Source: an uncultured virus (IMG/VR IMGVR_UViG_3300009503_000028) (taxonomy: Duplodnaviria; Heunggongvirae; Uroviricota; Caudoviricetes). From it: 64,000 nt of DNA. The notes under the pieces are model-generated. The model made no database searches and was not told where the DNA came from. It saw nothing but the letters and a program-made list of their open reading frames with translations. Below, piece after piece: positions 16,279 through 51,714 of the stretch. Within the stretch, counting starts at the first letter, position 1. Each line of letters begins with the position of its first letter. The position numbers and the translations under genes are program-made. The DNA lies in the IMG/VR virus record IMGVR_UViG_3300009503_000028. One strand, 5' to 3'.

Positions 16279-16293
16279 TTGTAGTAGAAAGTT

Positions 16294-17556
16294 TCAAATA
16301 ACTTTCCACCATACTTCTCCATGTTCTTTTTCATAATTATATAAACCAAGTTGGAGAGCATCTACAAGGTCATCTCCAGACTTGCTGTTCCAGTTGTACA
16401 TCCTAAGTTCTTGGATTAGGTCCTGATATATCTGTGGAATCTTTACCTTTCTCTGGTGGAATAGTAGTCTCATGTGGGACTGCATCTGAGTCTTCTTATA
16501 TTGGAAAGGAACTGGTTCTACAGCTATCCCCTTAGCTTCAAGTCTCTGGTTCTCTCCAGCATTCTCAGCATCAGCATATACTGTTTCAACATTGAAGTGT
16601 CTACATATCTCTAGTATTTTCTGATGAATGTCTTCAAACTGTTCTCTCCTCCACTGGTCACAGTACAAAACTCTGTAGATATCATTCACTTTCTGAAGTA
16701 TGACAATTGCTGTATAGTGCTCGAACCCCCAATCAAGTCCTGCAACTATCCTATTATTTCCATCTGGTAGGAACTGTTCTACATCCTTTACACAATCTTT
16801 CAAAGCATCAAATTCGACTACTCTTTCAGACTTCAATAGATATGGTTTTCCTTCCCAGAAGACTTGTCTAACTTCTTCTGGAAGACTTTCTGCTTCTTTA
16901 AGTTTCTCAACTGGAATCCTTGGGCAGTCTGATGCTTTCCAGTTGAATCTTTTCCAGTCTGGATATTCTGTAGTATCTTGGAATATGTTTACAAATAGAG
17001 AAGCAGCATCCATAGGTGTTCCACTCAATATAATGATGTCTCTTTTCATTCCACTAGTTATTCGTAATGCATCCTGGATTAGGAAATCTCCAGCTAAGAC
17101 AGCTTCATCAATTAATACTACCTCAGCATGGATCCCTTGTATAGCTTTTAGACTATTAGGTAGTGCCCGAATTTCAGATCCATTTTTGAATTTAGTTATA
17201 GACTGTAAAGGCTCTCCTTCTATTTCATCTTGGATGTACTCATGGTCTAATGCTTCTCGACAATAGTCATATAGATATTTGGCTTGGGACCTACTACCAG
17301 ATATGATAATTACTCTGATGGGATCCTTCTCTATTTTTGAAACTACTATAGAGAGCCACAGAGCTATTACAGCAAGAAGTCTTGTCTTTCCAGTACTGGC
17401 AGCAGCTTGGATGATTATCCTCTTGCTACCAGATTGTATACTCTCTAGTATCTTCTTCTGGTATTCATAAGGTTCAAATTTGAAAATATCTTTGAAGAAC
17501 TGAGATGGAGATTTGTACCACAGAAGGAATGTAGATGCTTTAGCTATTGGATCCAA
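16294..17556 (-). CDS. terL: Terminase large subunit
   Basis: PYEYQ Q-motif, AASTGKT Walker A, VLIDEA Walker B, LSGTP motif III; nuclease domain AGLDWG and DDLVDAL. Confidence 0.92.
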   Translation of the reverse strand: MDPIAKASTFLLWYKSPSQFFKDIFKFEPYEYQKKILESIQSGSKRIIIQAAASTGKTRLLAVIALWLSIVVSKIEKDPIRVIIISGSRSQAKYLYDYCREALDHEYIQDEIEGEPLQSITKFKNGSEIRALPNSLKAIQGIHAEVVLIDEAVLAGDFLIQDALRITSGMKRDIIILSGTPMDAASLFVNIFQDTTEYPDWKRFNWKASDCPRIPVEKLKEAESLPEEVRQVFWEGKPYLLKSERVVEFDALKDCVKDVEQFLPDGNNRIVAGLDWGFEHYTAIVILQKVNDIYRVLYCDQWRREQFEDIHQKILEICRHFNVETVYADAENAGENQRLEAKGIAVEPVPFQYKKTQMQSHMRLLFHQRKVKIPQIYQDLIQELRMYNWNSKSGDDLVDALQLGLYNYEKEHGEVWWKVI

Positions 17557-18070
17557 AACTCTTCCACCTATCTAGAAACTTCTTGACAAGGTCAAGTGGG
17601 AAATCTTTCATACATTCTACAAATCTAGCTTCTAAGTTTGTTGGTTCTTCTTCTTTGAGTTTAAGTTCCTTAGACCATCTTAGAAGTTCTTCAATGATTA
17701 GTCTTGCTTCTTCAATATATTCTAGTAATAGTTTTTCATCCGACTCTTCCATTGGATCTTTCTTAAGTTTCTCAAGCATTTTCTTTCTACATATCTCCAA
17801 AGCTTCAGTAAGTTGTTGAGCTATTAGGACATCTTTCTTGATCTGAGCTTTGATAACTTCATCTCTAAACTTGCTTGATTTTACTGCTTCTTCAATGAAA
17901 GGGAGACAGTGTTTAGTGAAGTGTCTCCTAAATGCTTCCCAGCTTATTATTTCATTGTGTTGAGTAAATGCTATCCTAGATAGCTCCATATATGTCAGAT
18001 GTTCTTGAAGTCTAAGTCTTTCATATTCCACTTTATGAGGAGATACGCACACTTTACATTTAGCACCCAT
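17540..18070 (-). CDS. Putative terminase small subunit (Zn-binding HTH)
   Basis: Overlaps terL start; CKVC...RRHFTKH; start set at the ATG after a GGTGG SD. Confidence 0.65.
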   Translation of the reverse strand: MGAKCKVCVSPHKVEYERLRLQEHLTYMELSRIAFTQHNEIISWEAFRRHFTKHCLPFIEEAVKSSKFRDEVIKAQIKKDVLIAQQLTEALEICRKKMLEKLKKDPMEESDEKLLLEYIEEARLIIEELLRWSKELKLKEEEPTNLEARFVECMKDFPLDLVKKFLDRWKSFGSNS

Positions 18071-21604: not shown

Positions 21605-22198
21605 ATGATAGAATATAAGATGAAAGAACTTAGACATAGTGGAATATACCTAGAAAGTATTAATACTGAACCAAAAATTAATGTTGATATAACTATCTAT
21701 GAACATGCATGGACATTTAGATTCTTTGTAGAAACTCCATATGGTAATATCTGGTTCTCTAATTCAGAAAGATTGAATACAATTATCTCTAATCTAGATA
21801 TCCCAGAAGTTTCTTCACTTGTTCATGCTGTTTCTATTCTTTCCAGTGAAACTAGAAAATTAAATTTTATGGAAGATTTTGCTCGTCGTATAGAAAATAA
21901 TGATGATTTTACTCAGCTATTTGATAAAGTAGCTAAATCAATTTATTTATCTTATATCCACAAATTGTATAGATATGCTGAAAGTGAGTATTATGAAAAA
22001 AAGTTTTATGAGAAAAACAAGGATGGGATGTATATAGCTCATCATGAAGTTTTAAAAGATTTATCTAAATATTCTGAAGCTAATAGATGGAAATGCAAAA
22101 TAGAAAGTTTGAATACAAAAGAAATGCTTGAGAGACATAAATTGAAGAAATTAGCTAACAAACTTGGGAGAAAAGATAAAAATGAGAGTAAATATTAG
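21605..22198 (+). CDS. Hypothetical protein with C-terminal GRK[DE] motif
   Basis: Ends LKKLANKLGRKDKNESKY. Confidence 0.7.
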   Translation: MIEYKMKELRHSGIYLESINTEPKINVDITIYEHAWTFRFFVETPYGNIWFSNSERLNTIISNLDIPEVSSLVHAVSILSSETRKLNFMEDFARRIENNDDFTQLFDKVAKSIYLSYIHKLYRYAESEYYEKKFYEKNKDGMYIAHHEVLKDLSKYSEANRWKCKIESLNTKEMLERHKLKKLANKLGRKDKNESKY

Positions 22199-22541
22199 AT
22201 GTTCTTTATCTGCTGTAGAATTCTATGGTTCTGAAGTCTTCAAAAGAAGACATACCGATTATGAAGTAATAGTTAGACCTTCTGACATTAAGCGTTTAGT
22301 ATTTAACAAATTGTTAGAAGATTGTAAAATACTAGAAATAGGAAGTTTTTCTTTCCTAAATGTAGAAATGCCAGAAGATAATTTTGAAATCTTCTTCATG
22401 TTGGGAGATTTAGACCTTAGAGGAAAGAGAAAACTTAAAGAAAATCTTTTAGAATTTGCTAGAGGAAAAATTAATAAGAATGAACTAATTTCAATACTAA
22501 CTCCATACCTATTAGCTAATAAGTTTGGGAGAAAAGAATGA
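22164..22541 (+). CDS. Hypothetical protein with C-terminal GRKE motif
   Basis: Ends LTPYLLANKFGRKE; true start probably the internal ATG (MRVNIR). Confidence 0.7.
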   Translation: MGEKIKMRVNIRCSLSAVEFYGSEVFKRRHTDYEVIVRPSDIKRLVFNKLLEDCKILEIGSFSFLNVEMPEDNFEIFFMLGDLDLRGKRKLKENLLEFARGKINKNELISILTPYLLANKFGRKE

Positions 22542-22843
22542 TGATGGTAGAGAAATCTCCAAGTAATAAATCTAGATGTTATCTATGTAATAATTACATT
22601 ATGAAAGATGAACCTAGAGTAAAAATCTATAGTAGTTATGAAAATCGCCCTAGCTATTACTGTTATCATCTTAAATGTTTTCTAGCATTACCAGAAGGAA
22701 GAAACTTCTTTAATAGTATAATTGGTATTTTACTTCCTTACTATTTTTCCAGTAATTCAGAAGCATTAGAACATATCAAGAGACTAGGAGAAATCTCTAA
22801 GATATTAGAAATATCAAAGTCATTAGGGAGGAAAGAAATATGA
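22538..22843 (+). CDS. PARP-type zinc finger protein with GRKE motif
   Basis: EKSPSNKSRCYLC...IMKDEPRV...YHLKCF matches zf-PARP spacing; ends SKSLGRKEI. Confidence 0.7.
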   Translation: MMMVEKSPSNKSRCYLCNNYIMKDEPRVKIYSSYENRPSYYCYHLKCFLALPEGRNFFNSIIGILLPYYFSSNSEALEHIKRLGEISKILEISKSLGRKEI

Positions 22844-22986
22844 ATGTAAGTATAAAAATATTAGGTATAGAAGGAGAAATAGTATCTGAGAAAACATTCA
22901 GATATGCAACTCTAAAGAAGATGAAACAAATAACTATACCATTTGGAGAATATACTATAGTTCTAGAAGTAACAGGTGAGAAGTAG
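22840..22986 (+). CDS. Small hypothetical protein (48 aa), not in the ORF track
   Basis: ATGA coupling; MNVSIKILGIEGEIV...EVTGEK fills the gap between two genes. Confidence 0.5.
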   Translation: MNVSIKILGIEGEIVSEKTFRYATLKKMKQITIPFGEYTIVLEVTGEK

Positions 22987-23313
22987 ATGCAATTTGAGAT
23001 ATCTCCAAATTCTAGAGCTAAATGTTACATATGTCATAAGATTATCCAAAAGGGTGAAGTTAGAGTAGAAATACTTCATTGTTTTAATAATATTATTGAA
23101 TCAAAATACATACATTATGAATGTTTTCTCAAAAATAATTATCTTAAAGAAGATGCTCTAAACAGTACAATGATATTCTTATCTGAATATTTTAGAAACA
23201 ATACTGAAGCTCTCCAACTTATTGAGAAACTTAAACATTTTTCACAAATTCAAGAGATTTCCAGTTATATAGGAAAAAAAGAAAAAGGAGATGAGAAAAA
23301 TGAAAGTATCTGA
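22987..23313 (+). CDS. PARP-type zinc finger protein, paralog of 22538
   Basis: EISPNSRAKCYICHKIIQKGEVRV...IHYECF; C-terminal SSYIGKKEK. Confidence 0.7.
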   Translation: MQFEISPNSRAKCYICHKIIQKGEVRVEILHCFNNIIESKYIHYECFLKNNYLKEDALNSTMIFLSEYFRNNTEALQLIEKLKHFSQIQEISSYIGKKEKGDEKNESI

Positions 23314-24469
23314 ACTAGCTAAATACCTAAAAGAGATATATTTGAAAGAAACAGATTTGAATGGAGAAAGAACATCAATTCTAGTATTCGGAACGCCTGG
23401 AATTGGGAAATCTCTAGCAACACTAAGAGCTAGCCAAGATATTGCTGAAGAACTAAAGAAACAGTGGGTAGACTATGATGACAATGAAGCATTGAAAATA
23501 CTAGAAAATCCACAAAACTATTTCGTGTATAACGATATGAGACTGTATGAACACGAACCTAGTGATTTCATAGGAATACCTACTAACAAAGATGGATTTA
23601 CTATGTTCTCTCCTTTAGCATGGGCTAAAGTACTATCTAAAACAGCTGGTTTTCTAGTATTAGATGAATTCACTAATGTAAACAGAAATGACTTGATAAC
23701 AGTAAGCTATAAACTACTGAATGATAGAAAAGTAGGATATTGTAAGTTCTCTAAAGATGTTCAGATAATAGCTATTGGAAATAGACCTGAAGATGCACCT
23801 GGAATAGCTCATGTCCCAGTACCACCAGTGTTAAACAGATGTGAACTTAGATACATAGAAGCACCAACAATAGATGACTGGTACAATTTCATGCAATCTA
23901 CATATCAAGACAATTGGGCTAAAGAAACATATGCATTTCTTACTGCATATGCAAGTGAGAAAGAGAACTATCTATGTTATGGATATCCTCCAGAAGATAC
24001 AATTGATAATTTCCCAAGACCTAGAACTTGGACTAAACTAGCTAGAAGAATGCTCTATGCTAGAGACTTTGAAACTATAATATCATTCATTGGTAAAGAA
24101 GTAGGAAGTAAATTCAATGCTTTCTTGAAAACAAATATTTCTCTTGATGATTTGCTATCTAAACCAGATATGTATCCAAAGCTTAAAGTAGATGCTCAAT
24201 ATATGCTACTGTTCCAATTAGCTAAAGCAATTGAAACTAACAAGTATCTTAAACACAAAGCTAGCCATGAAATAGAAGAAAGACATCTAGCACTACTCAA
24301 TTCAATCTATGACTACAAAAGAGAACATATTCTAGTTCTAACACACATGATAGCTGAAAAGAAACTGATAGACTTTCTACTAGTAATGACCAAGAGACCA
24401 GAATTCAAAGATATTGAGAAATACTTAACAGATATTTACGACAAAATAAAAGCAGTAGAAAGGAGATAA
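23300..24469 (+). CDS. MoxR-family AAA+ ATPase
   Basis: Walker A GTPGIGKS, Walker B LVLDE, sensor-1 IGNR, arginine finger LNR, PRPRTW sensor-2; adjacent to a vWA gene. Confidence 0.88.
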   Translation: MKVSELAKYLKEIYLKETDLNGERTSILVFGTPGIGKSLATLRASQDIAEELKKQWVDYDDNEALKILENPQNYFVYNDMRLYEHEPSDFIGIPTNKDGFTMFSPLAWAKVLSKTAGFLVLDEFTNVNRNDLITVSYKLLNDRKVGYCKFSKDVQIIAIGNRPEDAPGIAHVPVPPVLNRCELRYIEAPTIDDWYNFMQSTYQDNWAKETYAFLTAYASEKENYLCYGYPPEDTIDNFPRPRTWTKLARRMLYARDFETIISFIGKEVGSKFNAFLKTNISLDDLLSKPDMYPKLKVDAQYMLLFQLAKAIETNKYLKHKASHEIEERHLALLNSIYDYKREHILVLTHMIAEKKLIDFLLVMTKRPEFKDIEKYLTDIYDKIKAVERR

Positions 24470-24471
24470 AA

Positions 24472-25695
24472 ATGCAAATAAAAGAACTGAAAGATGATAT
24501 CTCAGATATCCAAGCTGTTCTAGCAGTTCAATTTCCCTTTATAGCTAGTCTAGGTTCTAGATGCAAAATAGTAGCATCTGAGAACCTTCAGTTCCCAGCT
24601 GGAGTTACTAAGGAAAACTATCTGATAATAAATCCAAAAGAATGGGAAACTTTCGATTTGAGAGATAGAGTATTCATATTTGCTCATGAAGTATGTCATA
24701 TAGCATTCCAGCATCTAGACAGAAGAGGAAATAGAGAACCTAAGATTTGGAATTATGCTACTGATGCAGTTATAAATGACATACTAGAAGATGTTCTTTC
24801 TCATAATGTCAAATGTATATCTCTAAGAGGTTTATCGTATGATTTATCTGAAAATTATGATTCACTAAGTAAATCTTCAGCAGAAGAAATACACGATAGA
24901 ATGGCTAGAAAAGCTGTAACTTACAGATTTCTGTCTTCTCAATATGGAGATGCAGATGACCTAACTGGAATACCTTCTCCAGAAGGTAGTTCTACTATCC
25001 AAGAAGGAGATGAAGAAATCAATAACAGTACTAATGGAGAAGCTAAAGAGAAACTGTGGAGTGAAGCAGTAGCTCAAGCATATTCTATGCAGAAAAGTAT
25101 TGGAACAGTTCCAGAAGGATTAGCTAGACTTGTAGACCAATTACTAAAAGCTAAAGTAAGATGGGAAAACATTCTGAAGAAAGAAATAGCTGTAGGAATA
25201 GGAAAGAACATAATTGGAGATTGGAGAAAAAGAAGTAGAAAACTACCAGCTATGTTCCCTGGATTGAGGAAAGAAACACTACCAACTATATGGAATCTAG
25301 TAGATACTTCTGGTAGTATAGATGAGAAAGAACTTAGACAGTTCATTTCTGAAATATATGCTCAAGCTAGAGAAACATCAGTTAAAGTAATACCTTTTGA
25401 TGCTAGAAGTTATGAGATAATCCAAGCAAATACTCAGTCTGATGTAATTAGAGAAGTATCTAAAAGACTGAAAGGTGGAGGAGGTACAGAAATTAGGGAT
25501 GCACTTGAGAAGACATTTAAACAGATGCAGTATGGAGATATTGTAGTAATACTGACAGATGGAGACATCTATGATAAAGAATCTCCAGAAGTTCTAGATT
25601 TAGCTAGAAGAATTAAGTACAAAGCATCAGCATCAGTAGTTGTCTTTACTCATAGTGAAGTTCCTTTCTGGAAGAATGTAAAGATGGAGATTTAG
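24472..25695 (+). CDS. vWA-domain protein with N-terminal zincin-like metallopeptidase domain (DUF2201-like)
   Basis: HEVCH (HExxH) and WNYATDAVIN; MIDAS DTSGS, GGGT, LTDG. Confidence 0.88.
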   Translation: MQIKELKDDISDIQAVLAVQFPFIASLGSRCKIVASENLQFPAGVTKENYLIINPKEWETFDLRDRVFIFAHEVCHIAFQHLDRRGNREPKIWNYATDAVINDILEDVLSHNVKCISLRGLSYDLSENYDSLSKSSAEEIHDRMARKAVTYRFLSSQYGDADDLTGIPSPEGSSTIQEGDEEINNSTNGEAKEKLWSEAVAQAYSMQKSIGTVPEGLARLVDQLLKAKVRWENILKKEIAVGIGKNIIGDWRKRSRKLPAMFPGLRKETLPTIWNLVDTSGSIDEKELRQFISEIYAQARETSVKVIPFDARSYEIIQANTQSDVIREVSKRLKGGGGTEIRDALEKTFKQMQYGDIVVILTDGDIYDKESPEVLDLARRIKYKASASVVVFTHSEVPFWKNVKMEI

Positions 25696-25698
25696 AAC

Positions 25699-25872
25699 AT
25701 GAATTGTCCCAAATGTGGTAGATTCATGAAAATAGAAATAACAAGAGATGATGGATGTAGAATGTATTCATGCTATCACTGTAACATATCAGTTGGAGAA
25801 GAAACTGAAAAATGGTTTACGAAAATGAGAGAATATACTATCAGAAAAGAAAGGAGGGAAAATAAAACATGA
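25699..25872 (+). CDS. Small zinc-ribbon protein (57 aa), not in the ORF track
   Basis: MNCPKCGRFM...YSCYHC; stop overlaps the next ATG. Confidence 0.55.
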   Translation: MNCPKCGRFMKIEITRDDGCRMYSCYHCNISVGEETEKWFTKMREYTIRKERRENKT

Positions 25873-26318
25873 AAGAAGAAAGTCAAAGAGAAAAGATAAA
25901 TGTAGATACAGTAAAACTCTTCTTAGGAAGAATATTTGGAGGTTCTGTCGATGACTACAATATACAAGAGAGGAACAATGAACTTATTGTAAAATTTGAA
26001 GCAGACAACTTTGTAGCTCAGTTCTTAGAAAGCATTATATGTGTAGATTTGAAGTTCAGAGATGATATTGAAAGAATGGTTTTCAATACAGCAACTCTAG
26101 AAGAAATAAAGAGATTTGCACCTTCAGTATCCAAAGCATTTTCTGCTGCTTTATACTATGAATTCAGAAATGGTGTTGTGAACCAGATAAAGAAAGAAGT
26201 GAAAAGTATATTCTGTGATCTAATCTATCCACTCAAAGAGAAAGTTCTAAGAAATCTTACTGAAGACTATATCAAAAGTTTGAAGATAGCTGAGACAGTT
26301 GGGAGAAAAGAGAAATGA
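25869..26318 (+). CDS. Hypothetical protein with GRKE motif
   Basis: Ends SLKIAETVGRKEK. Confidence 0.7.
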   Translation: MKEESQREKINVDTVKLFLGRIFGGSVDDYNIQERNNELIVKFEADNFVAQFLESIICVDLKFRDDIERMVFNTATLEEIKRFAPSVSKAFSAALYYEFRNGVVNQIKKEVKSIFCDLIYPLKEKVLRNLTEDYIKSLKIAETVGRKEK

Positions 26319-26671
26319 GACAAATATTAGTGATTACACATTATCCAAGACAAATATCAATTGAAGTCTTAGATCATTATGAAGCTATTGTAAAAGTATT
26401 TGTTCCCTACAAAAGTAAGAAATATAACGTAGTCTCAAACTATCTTTTTAGAAGGAAATTCCGTACAGAATGGCAATTACTTGATTTTCCAAATAGTCTA
26501 TACTGTAAAGTCAAACCAAGAGATTTTATCTTCTTAGAAGGTCTTAAAATTCTACCAACAAGACACGAAATATGGAAGAAATTGGTAGATATTGATTCTT
26601 CATCTTCAATAATAATATCATTGTTGAAACCTTATGTCCTATCTAGAAGTTTGGGAAGGAAAGAGAAATGA
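26315..26671 (+). CDS. Hypothetical protein with GRKE motif, paralog of the next gene
   Basis: LVITHYP and KPRDFIFLE shared with 26668; ends LKPYVLSRSLGRKEK. Confidence 0.75.
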   Translation: MRQILVITHYPRQISIEVLDHYEAIVKVFVPYKSKKYNVVSNYLFRRKFRTEWQLLDFPNSLYCKVKPRDFIFLEGLKILPTRHEIWKKLVDIDSSSSIIISLLKPYVLSRSLGRKEK

Positions 26672-27037
26672 AACGAACATTAGTAATTACACACTATCCA
26701 AAAGAAATATCAATTGAAATCCTAGACGAAGCTAGAATTCTTATCCAGACAAAAATTCCTTACAGATGGTCTTTCAAATTTGCTGTTGTTAAAGATTATT
26801 TTGCTGAAAGAAAGTTCTTTACTTACTGGCAAGGCTTTGATTTCCCTGAAAATCTTTACTCTATAGCTAAACCTAGAGATTTCATTTTTCTTGAAGCTCT
26901 AAATGTTCTTCCATCTAGTCATAAAATCTGGAAAAAAATTGTGTAAAGGAAAAGTTATTTTACCTTTTCAAATAGTAAAAGAATTGAAACCTTATGCTCT
27001 TTCTAAGTCTTTAGGAAGGAAGAATAAAAATGACTAA
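26668..27037 (+). pseudogene. Paralog of 26315 split by one extra A in an A7 run (pseudogene, slippage site or sequencing error)
   Basis: Removing one A at 26932-26938 restores WKKLCKG...LKPYALSKSLGRKNKND. Confidence 0.7.
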
Positions 27038-27566
27038 AGATTATTTCAACAAGTTTCTAGCCTATTACTATCATACTTCAGAAGAGAATGTCTCTGTTTT
27101 GTCTAGAAATTCACTTGTACGAGAAATTAAAAGATCAGAACATTTAGACTACATTACTGATTTTCTTGAAGAACTTTTAAAGGATGAAGTTGGGTTAATT
27201 GATTATAATGCTCGAAATATTGCTTTGATTGTTGAGTATAATAGAAGAGACAATCTCATATATTTTGATGCTTTTACTTATGTAGAAATACTATCAGAAA
27301 ATTATACTTTTTATGTTGGATGTATGGCATTAGATTTAGAAACTTTTTCTCCAGAATCATTCAATTATCAAGTTTCTCTCCTTCTTGAAGAAGTTATCAG
27401 AAGTCATAAGAAAATCCATTTTCTCCAAGATGAAGAAAAGGTACTACTATATCTATTAGATTTATATATGTTCAATGAACCAGATGCTAGTGAGATGTGT
27501 ACAAAACTTCATGACTATATTGAAGCTAGGAGACTAGCAAGATTGGGAAGAAAAGAAAATAAATGA
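27030..27566 (+). CDS. Hypothetical protein with GRKE motif
   Basis: Ends EARRLARLGRKENK. Confidence 0.7.
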   Translation: MTKDYFNKFLAYYYHTSEENVSVLSRNSLVREIKRSEHLDYITDFLEELLKDEVGLIDYNARNIALIVEYNRRDNLIYFDAFTYVEILSENYTFYVGCMALDLETFSPESFNYQVSLLLEEVIRSHKKIHFLQDEEKVLLYLLDLYMFNEPDASEMCTKLHDYIEARRLARLGRKENK

Positions 27567-27578
27567 GGTAGAAAGAGA

Positions 27579-28124
27579 ATGGGAGAAGCAACATTTTATC
27601 TAATAGCTCAATTTGAAAGTGATGAAGATGCTAACTTTGCTGAAGACTTTGCTAGAATTGTCTTTAAGGAACTATCAAAATTCTCTGATGAGTGGCAGAA
27701 AATTAGAAGTAATCAGAATAAATCTCCTGTTGAAAGACATAAAATATTGTTAAAGAAGTTTCCGCTAGTGAGAAGATATATTAGACTGCCAAAGCCTACA
27801 AAAGAAGACGTATCTATGAATTATCTAGCTGGACAGTGTGAGATAACTAATGATTTTACTCTATATTCTGAAGGAAACTCTGTTAGACTTTCAGATTATG
27901 TCTGGCATCTTGCATCATGGGATAATATATCTGAGTTCTTTTACAGATTAGGAGCTAGAAAAGTAATATGGAAATCTGAAGAATACTTCAATTACTTTGA
28001 TTTACTAGAAGAAAGAATAGAAGACATACCAGAGGCTAGAAAGAAAGTAAGACAGTTCTCTAAAGATGAAATCGAAAAGATATTGTTAGCACTCAAAATA
28101 GGAAGGAAAGAGAATGACAAGTAG
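27579..28124 (+). CDS. Hypothetical protein with GRKE motif
   Basis: Ends ILLALKIGRKENDK. Confidence 0.7.
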   Translation: MGEATFYLIAQFESDEDANFAEDFARIVFKELSKFSDEWQKIRSNQNKSPVERHKILLKKFPLVRRYIRLPKPTKEDVSMNYLAGQCEITNDFTLYSEGNSVRLSDYVWHLASWDNISEFFYRLGARKVIWKSEEYFNYFDLLEERIEDIPEARKKVRQFSKDEIEKILLALKIGRKENDK

Positions 28125-28467
28125 TTTTGGTAAAGATTTCAAAATGGCCATGGGCAAATATTCTGCTGTTACAGATGAAATATGTGTTCTATGTAAGAAA
28201 CATATACAGAATGGAGATGAAATAGTAGTAGCTGGAGACTGGATAGAAGATGCTGAAACTAAACAGATCTTAGTTGAGCCATATTATACTAACTTTATGC
28301 ATTTACAATGCTTTCTATCTCACAATCAGTTCTTTATCCATCAGGTTATAGAACATATTTTACGGAAACACCTAACTCCAGAAACTTATGAAAATGTTAA
28401 GAAAGAGTTTGAAATCTCTATTATGGCATCTAAAATAGGAAGGAAAGAGAATGAAGTTAGTCATTAA
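28114..28467 (+). CDS. Zinc finger protein (PARP-finger-like) with GRKE motif
   Basis: CVLCKKHIQNGD...MHLQCF; ends IMASKIGRKENEVSH. Confidence 0.65.
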   Translation: MTSSFGKDFKMAMGKYSAVTDEICVLCKKHIQNGDEIVVAGDWIEDAETKQILVEPYYTNFMHLQCFLSHNQFFIHQVIEHILRKHLTPETYENVKKEFEISIMASKIGRKENEVSH

Positions 28468-28819
28468 TGGATTTTTAACTATTTCTACATCAATAACTGG
28501 ATCTACAATAAATATACCAGTTGCTGGATCTCCATTTTCTGTTTCAGTTCCTGGACTTTCTAATCCGAATAAGTATTCGTTTGAATTAAAGAGTATAGAA
28601 ATAGTAGAAGATAAAAAAGCATCTTCGAATGATCTGATATCAATCTCTTTAAGTGAATTTTCAACTTTCTTCTTTAGTGAAATTCTGAAATACACAACAG
28701 ATAAAGAGACTATTGAAAGTATTGAGAAAGTTAAGAAATTCTTAGAATTATTAGATATGAGTTCAACTATTGGTAGAGGTAATAACAATGATGTTGGAGG
28801 TAGTAAAAACGGGAATTGA
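28451..28819 (+). CDS. Hypothetical protein with degenerate GR motif
   Basis: LDMSSTIGRG near the C-terminus. Confidence 0.6.
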   Translation: MKLVINGFLTISTSITGSTINIPVAGSPFSVSVPGLSNPNKYSFELKSIEIVEDKKASSNDLISISLSEFSTFFFSEILKYTTDKETIESIEKVKKFLELLDMSSTIGRGNNNDVGGSKNGN

Positions 28820-29519
28820 TGTATTTGAAGAAACAGAAAAATTCAAAATATTCCAAGAGAAAGTCAGACAACTAGAAATAAAAAGAGATCAAATAGAAAA
28901 GAGTCTTAAAGAATTGAACAGCTATCTAATGCCATTTTCAGTAAGGGCAAAGACAGTTAACATAGATGAAAGAAACCATTTTTTAGTTACTAGAAAGACA
29001 ATTTGTTTCAGTAATTCCAATCTCACTACTCATCTATACTATATTGATTCATTAGGTTTCTTTGTTAAACTGAATGAGATAGACACAAGCTACATTAGGC
29101 AACTAAGTTTAGTAGTTAGAAAACAGATAAGAGATTACTTGTATCCATATCTTCTAGAAGGAATGAAGCTGAAAAATAATGTTGTAATAGATGAGAGTGT
29201 TCTTCCAAAACCTATAAAGATATTCTCTTATTCAGATGAGTTTAAAACATTAAATGTTGATCGTTTAAAGGTAGAAAATACAGATCTGTGCCTCATGGAT
29301 ACTTCAGCACATATAACAGAACTTCCTTTCAAGTGGGTTCTCAACCAAATAACAAATGCTCTAGCTATTGCTCAACAGTGTCCTGAAATCTTTAACTTCT
29401 ACAAGAAAGGATTGGACTACTATGAGAGTGTCCTAGATTATGATTTTTCTATACTAAAGAACATGGAACATATCATTTCTCCATTTGTAATAGCTAAAAG
29501 GATGGGAAGGAAAGAATGA
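28788..29519 (+). CDS. Hypothetical protein (N-terminal coiled coil) with GRKE motif
   Basis: Ends ISPFVIAKRMGRKE. Confidence 0.7.
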   Translation: MMLEVVKTGIDVFEETEKFKIFQEKVRQLEIKRDQIEKSLKELNSYLMPFSVRAKTVNIDERNHFLVTRKTICFSNSNLTTHLYYIDSLGFFVKLNEIDTSYIRQLSLVVRKQIRDYLYPYLLEGMKLKNNVVIDESVLPKPIKIFSYSDEFKTLNVDRLKVENTDLCLMDTSAHITELPFKWVLNQITNALAIAQQCPEIFNFYKKGLDYYESVLDYDFSILKNMEHIISPFVIAKRMGRKE

Positions 29520-29920
29520 AAGACAAAAAGAAACATTACATTTGTATCCATGTTTATCCTTTCTATATAAGTATGTCTTTATCTAATAGTAGACCTCACG
29601 TATTTCTCTTTCCCAATAATAAAATTCATTTCATATATTTCGAGGAAGACTGTGCCAAATTCAAAAAGTATTCCTTAAAGTATAAAGTAATGAAATTATA
29701 TCTGAAAGGTAAGACAGTAAAGACCTGCTTTCTAGAAACTGATTTCTCTTGGTTTCAAGCTGATGAGAATGATATTGTATTCTTCAATGCATTGAAAGAG
29801 ATTCCTCAAAGAGATAAAGTCTGGGTTGAATGTCTTACTCAACATAAGAAAGGAATAATAGAATTATTGAAACTTAGACTTTTTTCTAAGAAAGTAGGAA
29901 AACATGAAGAGAAAAAATAG
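29516..29920 (+). CDS. Distant paralog of 26315/26668 with degenerate GK motif
   Basis: NDIVFFNALKEIP...KVW versus RDFIFLEGLKILP...EIW; ends FSKKVGKHEEKK. Confidence 0.6.
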   Translation: MKDKKKHYICIHVYPFYISMSLSNSRPHVFLFPNNKIHFIYFEEDCAKFKKYSLKYKVMKLYLKGKTVKTCFLETDFSWFQADENDIVFFNALKEIPQRDKVWVECLTQHKKGIIELLKLRLFSKKVGKHEEKK

Positions 29921-30938: not shown

Positions 30939-31601
30939 TTGGAATATATTAATGAAGACTTTCTAAAAGATATCTTCATTACTAAGAAAGCTATGCGAAG
31001 ATCTTCAAACAACAAAGTTGAATCTCCTATCCTTTTCAAATCCCTAGTTATCTTTGGTGTTCCTGGTTCTGGTAAGACTTCAATAGCTAATTACATAGCT
31101 AGAGAAGCAACAAAATACTATGGAATTAATAATGTTAATGCTAGATATGTTTCCAATGGAGAGATCGGTTTCCTAATTAGGTTTGGGATAGAGAAAAAAC
31201 TAGTAAATATCTTATTCATAGACAATCTAACTCTAGTTAAAGTTAGACCAGAAACTCTCCAGAGCTATTTCAAGATCAGACATCATCATGTTCTGGAAGG
31301 ATTAGAAAAAGGATATGTCTTGTCAATAGTAGCAATACATCGTTTCCATAGCTCTCCTCTTGAAGTTAGAACTATAATGGATGGTCTAATAGTTTTAGAT
31401 TCAACAATGAATCCATACGACAGAACAGTTCTAAACAACTTTGTAGGAAGTGAAGTTGTAAACTATTTTGATTCTCTAGCTTCTAGGAAACAAGAAGATC
31501 CTGAACTGAAATCTTTAGCATATTACAAATCCAAGAGTATAGAAGGATGGATAAAGATTCCTTTAGTAAAACAGAAATATATGAAATATGTATTTGAATA
31601 G
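30939..31601 (+). CDS. P-loop NTPase
   Basis: GVPGSGKT Walker A; ILFIDN Walker B. Confidence 0.75.
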   Translation: MEYINEDFLKDIFITKKAMRRSSNNKVESPILFKSLVIFGVPGSGKTSIANYIAREATKYYGINNVNARYVSNGEIGFLIRFGIEKKLVNILFIDNLTLVKVRPETLQSYFKIRHHHVLEGLEKGYVLSIVAIHRFHSSPLEVRTIMDGLIVLDSTMNPYDRTVLNNFVGSEVVNYFDSLASRKQEDPELKSLAYYKSKSIEGWIKIPLVKQKYMKYVFE

Positions 31602-31616
31602 ATAGGAGGTTTTATT

Positions 31617-31970
31617 ATGACTATATGGTATGCTGATGGTTCTGGATGGAATGGAAAAGAAAGTAAAGTTTGCATAGTTGAAAGAGACGAATTTAACCAG
31701 TTCAACAAGCATGTCTACATTATTAGATTTGAATATCAACTAACAAACAATGAAGCCGAATACTATGCCTTGATTCTTGCTTTAACTAAAGTCAAACCTA
31801 ATGATGAGATTAGAACTGACAGTCAGTTAGTCTTAAACCAGATTTCTGGAGAATGGAAGATAAACTTCCCTCATCTCCAGAGATTATGTGATACTGTTAG
31901 AGCAATCAAACCTCAAGATGTTAAGATATCTTGGGAACATGACAATCCAGCAGATAAAATATTAAAATGA
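31617..31970 (+). CDS. rnhA: Ribonuclease HI-like protein
   Basis: YADGS, TNNEAEY, TDSQLV and NPAD catalytic motifs. Confidence 0.85.
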   Translation: MTIWYADGSGWNGKESKVCIVERDEFNQFNKHVYIIRFEYQLTNNEAEYYALILALTKVKPNDEIRTDSQLVLNQISGEWKINFPHLQRLCDTVRAIKPQDVKISWEHDNPADKILK

Positions 31971-32500
31971 GGAATAAGACAAATATGCCAAGAATTACAA
32001 CTTTAGCATGGGTGTTACCAAGACCTTCTTCAACTTATAGAGGAAGTTTTCCTTTACACTTCGAGACAAAGTTATCTAAGCTTCTTGGATTGAAAGACAA
32101 GTTGATCCTTCAACCTTTTGGTGGAGTAGCTAAACTTGGAATTAGAGTAGATTTGAAGAAAGATGTCAAGCCTGATGTAATAGCTGATGCCCACCATTTA
32201 CCTTTTAAAGATTCAACATTTGATTGTGTGATTCTAGATCCACCTTATTCCGATGAATATTCTAAAGAACTATTCCAGATATCTCAGAAACTTAAAATGA
32301 AAGACTATATAAAAGAAGCAATTAGAGTTTTGAAAGAAAATGGTTTTTTAGTATTCTATCATATTTATCCAATACCTTGTCCTCATGGTTGTAGATGGTA
32401 TGCAAGGATTCTATTGGAACACAGAACATTTCATAAATTAAGATGGGTTGGTATTTGGCAGAAGGGATATCATGAAACCGATCTTAGCAAATATTTATAA
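31967..32500 (+). CDS. SAM-dependent amino-methyltransferase (probably DNA N6-adenine or N4-cytosine)
   Basis: PFGG motif I variant, ADAHHLPF, ILDPPY motif IV. Confidence 0.75.
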   Translation: MRNKTNMPRITTLAWVLPRPSSTYRGSFPLHFETKLSKLLGLKDKLILQPFGGVAKLGIRVDLKKDVKPDVIADAHHLPFKDSTFDCVILDPPYSDEYSKELFQISQKLKMKDYIKEAIRVLKENGFLVFYHIYPIPCPHGCRWYARILLEHRTFHKLRWVGIWQKGYHETDLSKYL

Positions 32501-48215: not shown

Positions 48216-49064
48216 ATGAGCATGAAAGTTGAAAAGGTTCCAATAGACAAGTTAACCATTTCAAAATGGAACCCAAGGTTCGCAAGTGTCCCTAAAGAAG
48301 AGAAACTTAGAGAATTTGCTTCAAACATCCAGAAGATATCTCTACTATCTCCTATAGTTACAAACAAGAAGTATGAGATCCTCTCTGGAGGACTGAGATG
48401 GAGAGCACTAAAACTAGCTGGAGTGAAAGAAACTGAAGTTCTAGTCTATGATACTGAAGAACTAGCAAGACAGAAGAACCTACCACTTGAAGTCGTTGAA
48501 GCTAAGATTTCAATCTCTTCAGACCTATACAAGTTTCCACTCCACACGTCAGAAAAAGGAGCAATACTTGACAAGCTCAGGAGCCAGGGATATAGCCTGA
48601 AAGATGTAGCTTCAATCATTGGATGTACTGAAGACACTGTGTGGAGATGGTGGCAGTCTGCTGAGATCCCGTCAACACTCAAGAAAGGTCTAGAACCAAA
48701 GTACAAGAAACTATCTACCAAGAAGAAACTCAAAGTTAGACAGATACTTGAAAGTATACCAGAAGAATACCAAGCTCAGGTCCTTAACCTAGCTGAAAAG
48801 GTAACTCTAAGAGACCTTGAAATGGCAGCTAAAGACATTATATCTGGTGCTCCAGTAGATTTCGACTGGAGAGTCCAATACTCAAAAGAAGACACAGAAC
48901 TTGTCCAGTATAGGATCTTGGATACAGTCATTATCCAGTTTAGAGAACTTTGCAAGGTATACGATGTAGACCCGTACAAGATGTTCGTTGAAGCAGTCAA
49001 ATTCTTCACTGCAGAAGAAAACTTCAAGAAACTGGTAGGTCCAGTTGAAGCTCAAAATAGTTGA
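48216..49064 (+). CDS. Third ParB/Srx-like protein with HTH
   Basis: VPIDKL...NPR, YEILSGGLRWRAL, GYSLKDVASIIGCTEDTVWRW. Confidence 0.82.
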   Translation: MSMKVEKVPIDKLTISKWNPRFASVPKEEKLREFASNIQKISLLSPIVTNKKYEILSGGLRWRALKLAGVKETEVLVYDTEELARQKNLPLEVVEAKISISSDLYKFPLHTSEKGAILDKLRSQGYSLKDVASIIGCTEDTVWRWWQSAEIPSTLKKGLEPKYKKLSTKKKLKVRQILESIPEEYQAQVLNLAEKVTLRDLEMAAKDIISGAPVDFDWRVQYSKEDTELVQYRILDTVIIQFRELCKVYDVDPYKMFVEAVKFFTAEENFKKLVGPVEAQNS

Positions 49065-51414
49065 TGCAACATATAGATACAGAAATGGATCTCCAGTAGT
49101 TGTCCTAGTCTGCAAGACTTTGAACGGTGAACAGAAAATCATTGAAGTTCCCTATCTCCCCTATTTTTATGTTAGAGATTATGACCCTAATTACTGTTTC
49201 AATTCTAACAAAGTTTCCCCTCCAGATTCCTTTTTGAAATCTGAACTTTCAGACTTCAAACCATATGATTCTGATAGTAACTTGTATAAAATATATGTCA
49301 AGAGACCAAGACAGGTCCCAGAACTTGCTGAGTACTTTGAAGACCTTCCAATGTTCAGAGGAGCAACAAAGTATGGTTCTCCTGTTCTTGAAGCTAACAT
49401 CCCTTTCTTCGAGAGGTTCCTAGTAGACTATGGTATAACAACTATGGTAGAATATAATGGAGACATCAGACCTACATCCTTCGACTACAGTTTTGACATT
49501 ATCTATGCTGACATTGAAGTTTGGTCTAAGAGCCTTTCAGAGATGAAGAAAGCACAAAATGCTCCTATAATCTCAATTTCTGTATATGACAGTGGCAAAC
49601 TTCTGAACTGGAACCTTTCGACAGAGATAAAAGAAACTAAAAGTATCCAAGTAGACCCAAAAATGCTCGAATCTAGGTTCTGTTCTTCTGAAGTTGATCT
49701 AATACTCAATTTTCTGAGATATCTTAGAAACAGGTCTCCAGACATTATAGTTACTTTCACAGATTTTGACATCCCATATGTTCTTACCAGAGCAGACTCT
49801 TTCAATGTCATTCTTTCCCATTTTTCCCCTGCAAAGATGGAAGATTTCAAGAGACAGAGGATATATGGTACCCAGACTTTAGACTACAGGAGACTCTACT
49901 GCAAAGTTTTCGACCCTCCCTTTTCAAATCTAGACTACATAGCTAGGAAAGAACTCGGTTATGGAAAACTTGAGTGTAATGTCTATACTGATTGGGTCAG
50001 AGATCCTTTGAAAGTTATAGAGTACAACCTCATGGACAGTCTCCTTCTTGCCAACTTGGAAAAGAAACTTGAACTCATAACCTCATTCTACAAGCCAATC
50101 AGAGACCTTACTGGTTTACCTTTTGGTATGTGTATGGTAAACTCTAAGGTAGGTATGAACTTACACCTTAGACTTGGAACCAAGAGAAAGATATGTTTCA
50201 AGACAAAATCTTATGCTCACCCTAGAAGTTATGAAGGAGCTTATGTGTATGCAAAGACTGGTCTCTTCAATGATGTCCTACAGTTCGACTTTTCAGAACT
50301 GTATCCTTCAATAATGGAGACATTCCACATTTCTGGAGACACAAAGACAACTTCAAAAGAGAATGTAGTTACTATCAATGGAGTATCTTTTAGACTTGAT
50401 ACTTTGGGAATAACAAATGAGGTCATCAAACCTCTTAGGGAAATCAGGAGAGAAGTCAAGAAGAAATACAAAGAAAGTAGAGAAAAGAAGTATGAGATGC
50501 TTAACATGGCTCTCAAACAAGTTATCAACTCAGCATATGGCATTTATGGCTATATTAAAGTAGCAACAAAAGGACAGGACACTGGTTTCTCATATGAATA
50601 CACAGTTGGTTCTCCTCTTTACGACCCAGAGATAGCTGGAGCAATAACTTACATTGGGAAAGAGATACTTCTCGAACTTATCAGGTATGTTACATCTTTA
50701 GGGTATGAAGTAGTCTATGCTGATACTGATAGCTTATTTATTCTATCTCAAGAGGACCCTGAGAAGATCAGGAAAACAATTGAGGAACACGTCTCACAGT
50801 ATATAATGGAAAAGTATAAGGTAGAATCTAAACTTACAATTTCCTTTGAAGAAAGAATCAAGAAACTGCTAGTAATTACAAAGAAGAGATATGCTGCTTT
50901 GTCTGAAGATGGAAACATAACTTTCAAGGGGATTGAAATAGTGAGGAGAGACACGTCAAACTTGATGACTTCTCTCCTTTCAAGATTTATTACAAAAGCT
51001 ATGAATGGAGCTTCTGTTTCTGACCTGAAAGATTTCATACTTCAGGAAGAGAAGAATATAGTTTCAGGCAAGTATCCACTCCAGGATCTAGCTCTAAGGG
51101 CTAGATGTGCTAAGAAGAGTTACAAGAAAGTCAAACCAGAGAACAAGAGAGCAATGGAATGGGCTGTTTCTCATGGCTTTGAAATAGAACCTGGAGAGAG
51201 GTTCTTCAAACTGTACGTCAAAACTCCAGAAGGTGTAATAGGATACCCATCTGAGAAAGAATTAGAAAGTGTTCTCAAGATTTTGGAACAGAAAAAAATA
51301 GAGATAGACTACAAGAAACTTGGAAGGATAAGTGTGAAGAAACTGTGGAACATAATAGAGCACCTAAGCAAGGAAACATTTAAAACATACACTCTTGATA
51401 ACTTCTTTAGGTGA
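49045..51414 (+). CDS. polB: Family B DNA polymerase (archaeal type)
   Basis: ExoI ADIE, ExoIII YNLMD, DFSELYPS, KQVINSAYG, YADTDS, KKRY; C-terminal TLDNFF PIP-like box. Confidence 0.95.
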   Translation: MKLKIVDATYRYRNGSPVVVLVCKTLNGEQKIIEVPYLPYFYVRDYDPNYCFNSNKVSPPDSFLKSELSDFKPYDSDSNLYKIYVKRPRQVPELAEYFEDLPMFRGATKYGSPVLEANIPFFERFLVDYGITTMVEYNGDIRPTSFDYSFDIIYADIEVWSKSLSEMKKAQNAPIISISVYDSGKLLNWNLSTEIKETKSIQVDPKMLESRFCSSEVDLILNFLRYLRNRSPDIIVTFTDFDIPYVLTRADSFNVILSHFSPAKMEDFKRQRIYGTQTLDYRRLYCKVFDPPFSNLDYIARKELGYGKLECNVYTDWVRDPLKVIEYNLMDSLLLANLEKKLELITSFYKPIRDLTGLPFGMCMVNSKVGMNLHLRLGTKRKICFKTKSYAHPRSYEGAYVYAKTGLFNDVLQFDFSELYPSIMETFHISGDTKTTSKENVVTINGVSFRLDTLGITNEVIKPLREIRREVKKKYKESREKKYEMLNMALKQVINSAYGIYGYIKVATKGQDTGFSYEYTVGSPLYDPEIAGAITYIGKEILLELIRYVTSLGYEVVYADTDSLFILSQEDPEKIRKTIEEHVSQYIMEKYKVESKLTISFEERIKKLLVITKKRYAALSEDGNITFKGIEIVRRDTSNLMTSLLSRFITKAMNGASVSDLKDFILQEEKNIVSGKYPLQDLALRARCAKKSYKKVKPENKRAMEWAVSHGFEIEPGERFFKLYVKTPEGVIGYPSEKELESVLKILEQKKIEIDYKKLGRISVKKLWNIIEHLSKETFKTYTLDNFFR

Positions 51415-51421
51415 AAACACA

Positions 51422-51709
51422 ATGTCTGAGAAGAACAAAGAGATAGAAATCTTTGAGAGACTAAGCAAAGTTGAAGCAAAGATAGATACTCTGATAGACC
51501 AGTCCAAATCCTTGAAGATCAGCATGGACAAGGTATGTGAGAAGTACAACCATGAGATAAGTGATATCTACAATGAACTCTCAGAACAGAGTAAAGACAT
51601 GGATGACCTTAGAGGTCTAAAGAAATGGGTTGAAACAATGAGTGTAACAATGGTAAGCCTTTTAGGTGTGATACTAGTTTATCTAATCAAACTCTTCCTT
51701 AAGGTGTGA
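51422..51709 (+). CDS. Coiled-coil protein with C-terminal TM (XhlA/holin-like architecture)
   Basis: ERLSKVEAKID coiled coil plus one TM; AGGTGA SD. Confidence 0.55.
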   Translation: MSEKNKEIEIFERLSKVEAKIDTLIDQSKSLKISMDKVCEKYNHEISDIYNELSEQSKDMDDLRGLKKWVETMSVTMVSLLGVILVYLIKLFLKV

Positions 51710-51714
51710 GGAGA

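Follow-up and report, generated by a model that had tools for sequence, protein, structure and literature searches.

The window analysed here is a 64-kb stretch of DNA from a tailed virus (IMG/VR record IMGVR_UViG_3300009503_000028), and the subject is a block of small genes on its plus strand between positions 21605 and 29920. Within this block lie the genes for a MoxR-like AAA+ ATPase and for a metallopeptidase fused to a von Willebrand factor A (vWA) domain, and the proteins encoded around this pair share a short C-terminal tail, or tag, that closes with G-R-K-E or a near variant. A sequence-only reading of the window had quoted 13 such C-termini, and all of them were found in the translations of the genes to which it assigned them. 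Four of the bearers (22182, 26315, 26668/26903 and 29516, genes being named by their starts) belong to what we define as the PY-tail family, in which a body of about 100-155 amino acids (aa) with a profile match is followed by the ending L-P-[YF]-h-h-[AS]-x-x-L (h, hydrophobic) and a few more residues. The features of the block are listed below (SD, Shine-Dalgarno sequence; ORF, open reading frame; MIDAS, metal ion-dependent adhesion site; nt, nucleotides).

21605..22198, +: tagged protein, 197 aa, tail LANKLGRKD plus 6 residues; the body of the ortholog in the close relative L005 is 32% identical, with the tag kept
22182..22541, +: PY-tail family protein, 119 aa, tail TPYLLANKFGRKE; partner chain in the complex model
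22538..22843, +: PARP-type zinc finger with a long C-terminal helix running into the tag ISKSLGRKEI
22987..23313, +: PARP-type zinc-finger paralog, tail ISSYIGKKE plus 9 residues
23300..24469, +: MoxR-like AAA+ ATPase, 389 aa from the ATG at 23300, or 392 aa from the ATG at 23291
24323..24469, +: helices at the ATPase C-terminus (residues ~345-392, counted in the 392-aa form), the predicted tag-binding groove; model contacts at 348-388
24472..25695, +: zincin-like HExxH metallopeptidase joined to a vWA domain whose MIDAS is intact
25869..26318, +: tagged protein, 149 aa, IAETVGRKEK
26315..26671, +: PY-tail family protein of the F2 branch, 118 aa, KPYVLSRSLGRKEK
26668..27037, +: frameshifted PY-tail paralog (ORFs 26668-26946 and 26903-27037), tail LSKSLGRKNKND
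27030..27566, +: tagged protein of 178 aa with the tail RLARLGRKENK, which has no SD role; a separate GAGGT beyond the stop serves the following gene
27579..28124, +: tagged protein, 181 aa, LALKIGRKENDK
28095..28117, +: junction of tag, SD and start whose 23 nt recur exactly at 28432-28454
28114..28467, +: third zinc-finger paralog, MASKIGRKENEVSH
28451..28819, +: tagged protein, 122 aa, degenerate tail MSSTIGRG plus 12 residues
28785..29519, +: tagged protein, 244 aa, ISPFVIAKRMGRKE
29516..29920, +: PY-tail family protein of the F2 branch, 134 aa, with the weakest tail, FSKKVGKHEEKK

The strict form of the motif, [LIVMF][AS]xx[LIVMF]G[RK][KRH] within the last 20 residues, is present in 11 of the 19 plus-strand ORFs that start in the block and in none of the 87 other ORFs of the window (Fisher p = 2.7e-10), an enrichment that the sequence-only reading had anticipated. 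A shorter core, h-G-[RK]-[KRHG], gives 13 of 19 against 1 of 87 (p = 2.2e-11), and no ORF has an internal match to the strict motif. No tag is present in six ORFs of the block, namely the ATPase, the vWA-peptidase, the tiny ORFs 22840 and 25699, ORF 29904 and the first half of the frameshifted gene. For these counts ORFs were called greedily, with an antisense ORF exchanged for the sense genes 28114-28467 and 28451-28819. That antisense ORF (28372-28788, minus strand, 138 aa) is longer than both sense genes under it and misleads length-based gene calls; it is almost certainly not a gene. In the frameshifted PY-tail paralog, an intact 121-aa relative (P0040, 79% identical) is matched by one frame over its first 91 residues and by a second frame over its last 36, and the split near 26903-26946 may reflect a sequencing error, decay or programmed slippage.

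Numbered from its glycine, the tag has a hydrophobic residue at -5, alanine or serine at -4 and a hydrophobic residue at -1, after which G-R-K-E follows. Among 37 non-redundant tags from the window and the close relatives L001-L005, the glycine is present in all 37, the arginine in 32, the lysine in 33, alanine or serine at -4 in 29, and L, I, F, V or M at -1 in 34. Across 11 ortholog pairs the eight tag positions are 70% identical (62/88) and the bodies 37% (577/1541), which implies a tighter constraint on the tail than on the quickly evolving bodies to which it is attached. The motif differs from a C-terminal degron of the ssrA type in that it is not tied to the free carboxyl end, 0 to 18 residues following G-R-K in this genus.

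Overlap of the tail with the Shine-Dalgarno signal

Genes of the window have GGAG, GGAGG or GGTGA about 6-12 nt 5' of their starts. In 26 of the 37 tags, the sequence GGRAGRAARGAR lies 10-16 nt before the next ATG as counted from the glycine codon, most commonly 13-14 nt. Six further tags in L004 had no start under an ATG-only rule, and for three of these a TTG or GTG could be read off the sequences at 13-16 nt. The commonest codon pairs for glycine-arginine are GGG-AGA (13), GGA-AGG (12) and GGG-AGG (6), each of which keeps GGAG or AGG, whereas GGA-AGA, which has neither, occurs once only, at 27566, the one window tag without an SD role (Fisher p = 9e-4); these counts take in orthologous copies, which are not independent events. 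Since the glycine codon stands at SD distance and the synonymous codons keep GGAG or AGG, at most junctions G-R-K-E supplies both the SD and the purine spacer for the gene that follows. A GGAG or AGG core is found 5-12 nt before the start, the exceptions being the window tags at 27566 and 23313 and those of the L004 genes ending at 4045 and 6626. In the gene 22987-23313, the GGAG of the next gene sits 3' of the tag. The copy next to 27030, which had been thought not to serve as the SD of the following gene, does lie at SD distance (27014-27025, 16 nt before the ATG at 27030).

A further question is whether the peptide is itself under selection, as the sequence-only reading held to the exclusion of an SD role. 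That exclusion does not survive, since most of the G-R-K-E codons double as an SD, but the positive half of the claim does. The codons for -5, -4 and -1 lie 3-15 nt upstream of the SD, and their residue classes are conserved while third codon positions vary. Moreover, the tag is kept where it has no SD role, at 27566 in the window and in the L004 genes ending at 4045 and 6626. Outside the block, inspection shows that SDs within upstream genes occur in all three frames and yield unlike endings (IREYKK, LLRKKQ, ERKEVFFR, KRTKGEK, NKGGKEE and IMEEAE). The SD leaves unexplained the frame lock, the conserved -5, -4 and -1 positions and the retention of the tag at junctions where it has no SD role.

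Translational coupling through an SD embedded in the upstream gene is a known arrangement, and the junctions of the block resemble it in that GGAG or AGG stands 7-12 nt before an overlapping ATGA-type start. They differ in that embedded SDs usually occur in any frame and specify no shared peptide, whereas here a single frame is used, behind a conserved helix, in 13 adjacent genes.

The bodies that bear the tail and its predicted reader

The bearers had been described as mostly unrelated. Several distinct bodies are indeed present, but BLAST and profile comparisons sort them into about eight groups, namely the zinc-finger paralogs 22538, 22987 and 28114, the four PY-tail members, the weak pair 21605/27579 and four singles. 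With the last 16 residues removed, BLAST joins 26315, 26668 and 29516 in one body family, to which a profile ties 22182 weakly; outside the tail, the F2 branch (26315 and 29516) and the 22182 branch are connected at E-values of 1.7e-4 to 7.7e-3. A profile of the 22182 family reaches full-length relatives that adjoin MoxR-vWA genes in L042 and L047 (9.5e-7), L011 (5.4e-5 and 2.4e-4) and L009 (3.5e-4). This family of ~120-aa proteins is rare, with only 53 proteins at E <= 1e-3 in a profile search of 1.84 billion representatives. These are 62-155 residues long, most of them 100-155, and almost every one closes with L-P-[YF]-h-h-[AS]-x-x-L and a few more residues that are often basic. A search of viral contigs for the PY family with the closer alignment set found no relative.

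The AlphaFold2 model of 22182 (predicted local distance difference test, pLDDT, 90.9) has a mixed strand/helix body and a final helix, residues 99-115, that bears the tail. No convincing fold match to this model was found with Foldseek in the PDB (best E 0.3) or BFVD (best E 0.032), or in a wide VIA-align search (best Z 5.3, to a helical hairpin only); atlas feature matches reached at most 0.88 and serve as a lead only. The zinc-finger bearers are modelled (pLDDT 86.3) as a PARP-1-like finger followed by helices, the last of which (74-96) stops at the tag glycine. Foldseek places the finger with PARP-1 Zn1 (E 2.3e-4; 53 columns at a root-mean-square deviation of 1.4 A), 15 chains reach E <= 0.001, and all 11 sequences compared keep the C-C-H-C ligands C14, C17, H44 and C47. 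The Pfam zf-PARP gathering score is not reached (23.3 and 32.7 bits against a cut-off of 39.3), and 28114 has no match. DUF2175 was a weak Pfam lead, for which a word-index search with 22987 returned only three near-identical relatives. Because the PY model matches no known fold convincingly while the zinc-finger model matches PARP-1, the same tail is predicted to close helices on different folds.

The junctions offer a possible route by which the tail moved between genes. The exact 23-nt repeat (28095-28117 and 28432-28454) takes in the tail, the ribosome site and the start at two junctions, those of unrelated genes, and recombination or gene conversion may act on it. Further repeats, 34-35 nt long and 71-79% identical, are shared by the tags of unrelated genes. 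Such repeats at the tag junctions of unrelated genes suggest that the tail spread by recombination at the tail/SD/start boundary.

The ATPase of the block is a divergent AAA+ protein. Its P-loop, G-x-P-G-x-G-K-S, is invariant in seven of seven relatives, and AAA_16, AAA_22 and AAA_5 are each matched by all seven alignment members. The MoxR-type profiles are matched only below threshold (AAA_5 at E 0.049 for the window protein and 7.6e-5 for the best alignment member; bpMoxR in 3 of 7 members, best 0.0025), so the name MoxR derives from the vWA neighbour, from how phage relatives are annotated and from Iyer et al. 2021. Searched against PDB sequences, the ATPase profile gave weak P-loop matches only (ClpB, 0.016). 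The adjoining partner is assigned more firmly. Its vWA domain exceeds the cut-offs of VWA_2 (2e-8) and VWA (8.1e-7), with MIDAS residues D278, S280, S282, T339 and D363 invariant in 12 of 12 sequences, and its peptidase part matches DUF2201_N (92.5 bits, cut-off 23.2) and DUF2201 (40.8 bits, cut-off 26.4), with the HExxH residues H72, E73 and H76 invariant in 12 relatives.

Who might read the tail was addressed by a single three-chain prediction of the ATPase (as a monomer), the vWA-peptidase and 22182-22541, each with its alignment. The complex scored 0.78 and the best of three controls 0.41, both unrelated stand-in partners giving 0.00; runs agree on at least 98% of contacts, and the partner has pLDDT of at least 82. 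The score passes a mark reached by 116 of 157 solved complexes and by 2 of 215 mismatched pairs, a calibration that is only rough for three chains and shallow alignments (7, 12 and 15 rows), which are unlike the tool's calibration set. Although the interface was not prespecified, on the partner side it is predicted to consist of residues 104 and 107-119, exactly the tag, opposite the ATPase C-terminal helices 348-388. The lowest-error contacts (L111, A112, F115 and G116) are the conserved -5, -4, -1 and glycine positions. By inspection, L004 has the same residue as the window at 19 of the 21 contact positions of the ATPase. The sequence-only reading had proposed that the tag addresses its bearers to the MoxR-vWA machine. 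The co-folding supports that proposal in silico for 22182, but only as regards the ATPase; the vWA-peptidase adds just three contact residues, and the tag is placed on neither the vWA MIDAS nor the peptidase.

Distribution of the tail and competing explanations

A word-index search with the ATPase returned seven relatives at E <= 1e-10, and a scan of metagenome contigs gave 48 loci, every one of them fetched through the ATPase. The close relatives L001-L005 have ATPases 81-98% identical to that of the window (81% for L004) and carry 5, 5, 4, 6 and 2 strict G-R-K tags, respectively; L004 has about 11 tagged genes downstream of its vWA-peptidase. In the remaining 43 loci the strict G-R-K tag appears only in L046, once. 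Several distant MoxR-vWA contigs place the SD after the stop codon, in a stereotyped T-run with GGAGG or GGGGTGA behind it, and many of their proteins still close with h-[AS]-x-x-h and a lineage-specific finish, as in V-S-E-E-L-[SP]-P (L009), I-S-x-x-h-M-[SR]-stop (L007/L012) and I-A-x-x-L plus 1-4 residues (L011/L046). Compared with 2000 shuffles of the last 16 residues of each protein, such tails are enriched in L009 (10 observed against 2.0 expected; reached by 0 of 2000 shuffles), L046 (8 against 2.0; 0) and L011 (7 against 1.9; 2), and more weakly in L041 (6 against 2.1; 29), L007 (5 against 2.0; 73) and L035 (4 against 1.3; 60). The window outside the block has 4 against 4.9 expected, and C-termini are not enriched for control patterns in which D/N or T/G replaces A/S. 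Several distant MoxR-vWA viral contigs thus carry shared tails of their own, as had been foreseen. A 14-column hidden Markov model of the tail alone had no power in the distant loci (best i-E-value 7.3), and the ATPase's C-terminal region is too divergent across lineages to be aligned reliably for comparison with the lineage-specific tails.

We favour, at a probability of about 0.55, the reading that the tail is a docking handle for the MoxR-like ATPase of the virus itself, serving as peptide and SD at once, and that it spread from the PY-tail family onto other bodies. The handle would be a short amphipathic helix end, (P-Y)-h-h-[A/S]-x-x-h, closed by G-R-K-E in this genus, that binds a groove between the last helices of the ATPase. 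It would have originated as the C-terminus of the one small viral PY-tail family and, in this genus, have been copied onto at least seven other unrelated bodies, including the three PARP-type zinc fingers. The G-R-K-E codons have a second job as SD and purine spacer of the next overlapping gene, which would fix the frame and make each junction the boundary of a portable cassette of tail, ribosome site and start. Contact with the ATPase is predicted for one protein, and we infer that the other tagged proteins dock as 22182 does, so that about a dozen different proteins would be tethered to the ATPase/vWA-metallopeptidase pair. Once tethered, they might act as adaptors that bring targets or be clients that are remodelled or cleaved; zinc fingers of the DNA-break type would suit an adaptor role.

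Several points weigh against this reading. Independent acquisitions of the tag number fewer than 13, because 4 of the 13 bearers are PY paralogs and 3 are zinc-finger paralogs, and the codon counts are swollen by orthologous copies. Docking rests on one model-confidence score, roughly calibrated, for one of 13 proteins; the vWA-swapped control, at 0.41, still placed the partner on the ATPase, which leaves that contact without a negative control. The model contains a single ATPase subunit, and in a hexamer the groove may be covered or put to another use. Nor does the tail follow the pair. Tail enrichment is absent from nine of the 18 larger pair-bearing metagenome loci (L010, L014, L015, L019, L020, L021, L027, L029 and L033), and from the bacterial phages nACB1 (2 against 3.1 expected), PA5oct (3 against 1.9) and Moorella MTATph1 (2 against 2.1). 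Of 17 ATPase-bearing genome loci, mostly archaeal metagenome-assembled genomes (MAGs), 15 lack enrichment, the exceptions being L053 (4 against 1.2) and the two-ORF locus L060, and none of the 17 has a PY-family match. The ATPases of the tail-less loci all keep the C-terminal helical region, and presence of the groove therefore does not predict tags. Because three of four bacterial phages and most genome loci lack enrichment, the tail is a feature of a subset of viruses with the pair and not of the pair as such, and the general link between tags and pair that the sequence-only reading implied is not supported.

One alternative is that the ending is a by-product of translation signals, in which the SD and spacer of an overlapping gene are read in the upstream frame after an ordinary helix cap and give a peptide without function. 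The spacing before the next ATG in 26 of 37 tags, the use of GGAG, GGAGG or GGTGA at like distance by other genes of the window, and the covariation of synonymous G-R codons that keeps GGAG or AGG all fit this account. It is nevertheless very unlikely, given that SDs elsewhere in the window occur in all three frames with unlike endings, that -5, -4 and -1 are conserved as residue classes upstream of the SD, that the tag stays at 27566 and in two L004 genes where it is not an SD, and that distant lineages have h-[AS]-x-x-h tails with the SD after the stop.

Common descent combined with recombination at junctions is another explanation, whereby the inherited end of one family was carried to its neighbours through similar 23-35-nt junctions and serves the folding of each bearer with no shared partner. 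The PY family does supply 4 of the 13 bearers, its last helix (99-115) is modelled confidently as part of the fold, and the exact and the 71-79% identical repeats lie where this account needs them. We consider it distinctly doubtful, however, for the fold of the zinc-finger bearers is a different and recognisable one, PY similarity is confined to the tail in at least five further bodies, and the complex model buries exactly the tag residues in the ATPase; a tail that served only folding is not expected to keep the same residues on unrelated folds as bodies drift to ~30% identity. The tail may instead be a genuine address label with another reader, such as a protein of the host, a further viral protein or, by co-assembly through the shared helix, the tagged proteins themselves. 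The many loci that have the ATPase/vWA pair without tails favour this idea, while the sole partner model that was run picked the ATPase through the tag and the PY family was found only in ATPase-fetched loci, a sampling that is biased; we regard a different reader as a minor but real possibility.

Were the docking-handle reading true, the clients or adaptors of the pair could be read straight from genome sequence. This would matter because the pair is widespread in phages while ideas on its role are so far guesses; with tblastn, the vWA-peptidase has relatives in 431 phage records, among them PA5oct, phage G and N4-like phages. If the tail marks the workers of the pair, its role becomes testable with peptides and pull-downs. 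One stretch of DNA would also be under two constraints, as docking peptide and as ribosome-binding site, and this double constraint may explain how the tag spread between genes. More tentatively, and as a proposal that could well be wrong, several unrelated viral lineages might use the ATPase/vWA-metallopeptidase pair as a hub, with a lineage-specific C-terminal helix as plug and the junction as a recombination-ready cassette, so that any captured gene could be wired to the hub. The panel, with its DNA-break-sensing zinc fingers, PY proteins and others, would then comprise interchangeable adaptors or timed clients, by which targets of the host or the virus are remodelled or proteolysed.

Known systems and the rest of the window

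Cofactors of p97/Cdc48 bind its N domain through short helical or linear motifs, and the adaptor SspB tethers to ClpX by its tail. The arrangement predicted here is similar in that many unrelated proteins share one short motif, as in AAA+ cofactor docking motifs, directed at an accessory, non-motor part of a ring ATPase. It differs in that the single gene block of one virus encodes both the machine and all the bearers, in that the motif codons double as a ribosome-binding site, and in that the tail is predicted to bind at the C-terminal helices of a MoxR-like ATPase. Literature searches, mainly of titles and abstracts, found no described docking motif for these helices and no paper on shared viral C-terminal tails read by a MoxR-like ATPase.

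Pairs of this kind have been described in other viruses. Passages in Iyer et al. 2021 (Viruses, PMC7824862) report a MoxR AAA+ / metallopeptidase-vWA pair in group 2.2 jumbo phages, where, as here, the protein encoded after the ATPase begins with an HExxH peptidase domain and ends with a vWA domain, and a comparable passage describes the MoxR p618 / vWA p892 pair of the Acidianus two-tailed virus (PMC4124505). For both, roles in virion assembly and structural-protein processing are proposed in these passages, which make no mention of a panel of small proteins sharing a C-terminal tail (PMC7824862, PMC4124505). In the window, by contrast, the pair lies among small non-structural genes, and the tail is predicted to sit on the ATPase. 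Part of a 2026 transposon study places a phage MoxR gene among the genes needed to overcome a predicted defence system (PMC13716836).

The bacterial vWA-MoxR ternary conflict systems, with their effector-associated domains, provide another comparison (Kaur, Burroughs, Iyer and Aravind 2020, eLife, PMC7159879). Sections of that paper describe peptide-processing modules made up of a zincin peptidase and small, fast-evolving proteins with a conserved C-terminal peptide, and the MoxR-vWA core, the zincin-like peptidase and the small diverging proteins with a conserved C-terminal peptide are all features shared with the block. According to the same sections, those systems are cellular, their third component is VMAP or iSTAND, and the peptide is cleaved off (PMC7159879). 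In the virus, unlike the ternary systems, the motif is a helix end followed by 0-18 residues. A Pfam scan of 24 window proteins found no third component of the VMAP or iSTAND type, of which distant versions could escape such a scan.

Beyond the block, the following genes place the window among tailed viruses or follow the block.

16294..17556, -: large terminase
30939..32500: second small AAA-type ATPase, RNase H and methyltransferase, after the tagged block
49045..51414: family-B DNA polymerase
51706..53739: 677-aa protein

RadA/UvsX-like recombinase and ParB-like proteins are also encoded in the window, and no tRNA was found there. The polymerase is nearest to those of haloarchaeal tailed viruses (~24% identity), and relatives of the ATPase sit mostly on archaeal MAG contigs (Methanomethylicaceae, 44%; Archaeoglobaceae, 38-39%; Thermoproteaceae, 35-36%); from these affinities, the host of the virus is likely an archaeon. 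A search of IMG/VR with the vWA-peptidase returned no close relatives.

In the Thermus phage phiFa (L049), RNase H is also present, between the ATPase and the vWA-peptidase. Downstream of the latter, at 13651-17669, four proteins end in K-[YF]-[YF]-x-x-x-A-x-K, a PY-tail-like ending that is fullest in two of them as K-[YF]-Y-T-D-L-A-x-K ... G-G; the four look like paralogs of one another, and the regular-expression count for this phage is 2 against 3.0 expected. In L011 (10001-11197), L037 (2831-4028) and L041 (10419-11162), the MoxR-like ATPase is present as two ORFs or as a C-terminal half only, and the gene may be split, frameshifted or interrupted. L009, L011, L012 and L041 have a near-uniform gene junction that consists of a stop, a few C, 5-7 T, GGAGGA or GGGGTGA and a start (for example, L011 7816-7832 and L041 12432-12460). 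Such junctions could combine an oligo-T terminator-like signal with a strong ribosome site between almost all genes.

The first ~200 residues of the 677-aa protein match PHROGs annotated as protease, ribonucleotide reductase and thymidylate synthase, a mixture of matches that is common with intein or Hint-like segments.

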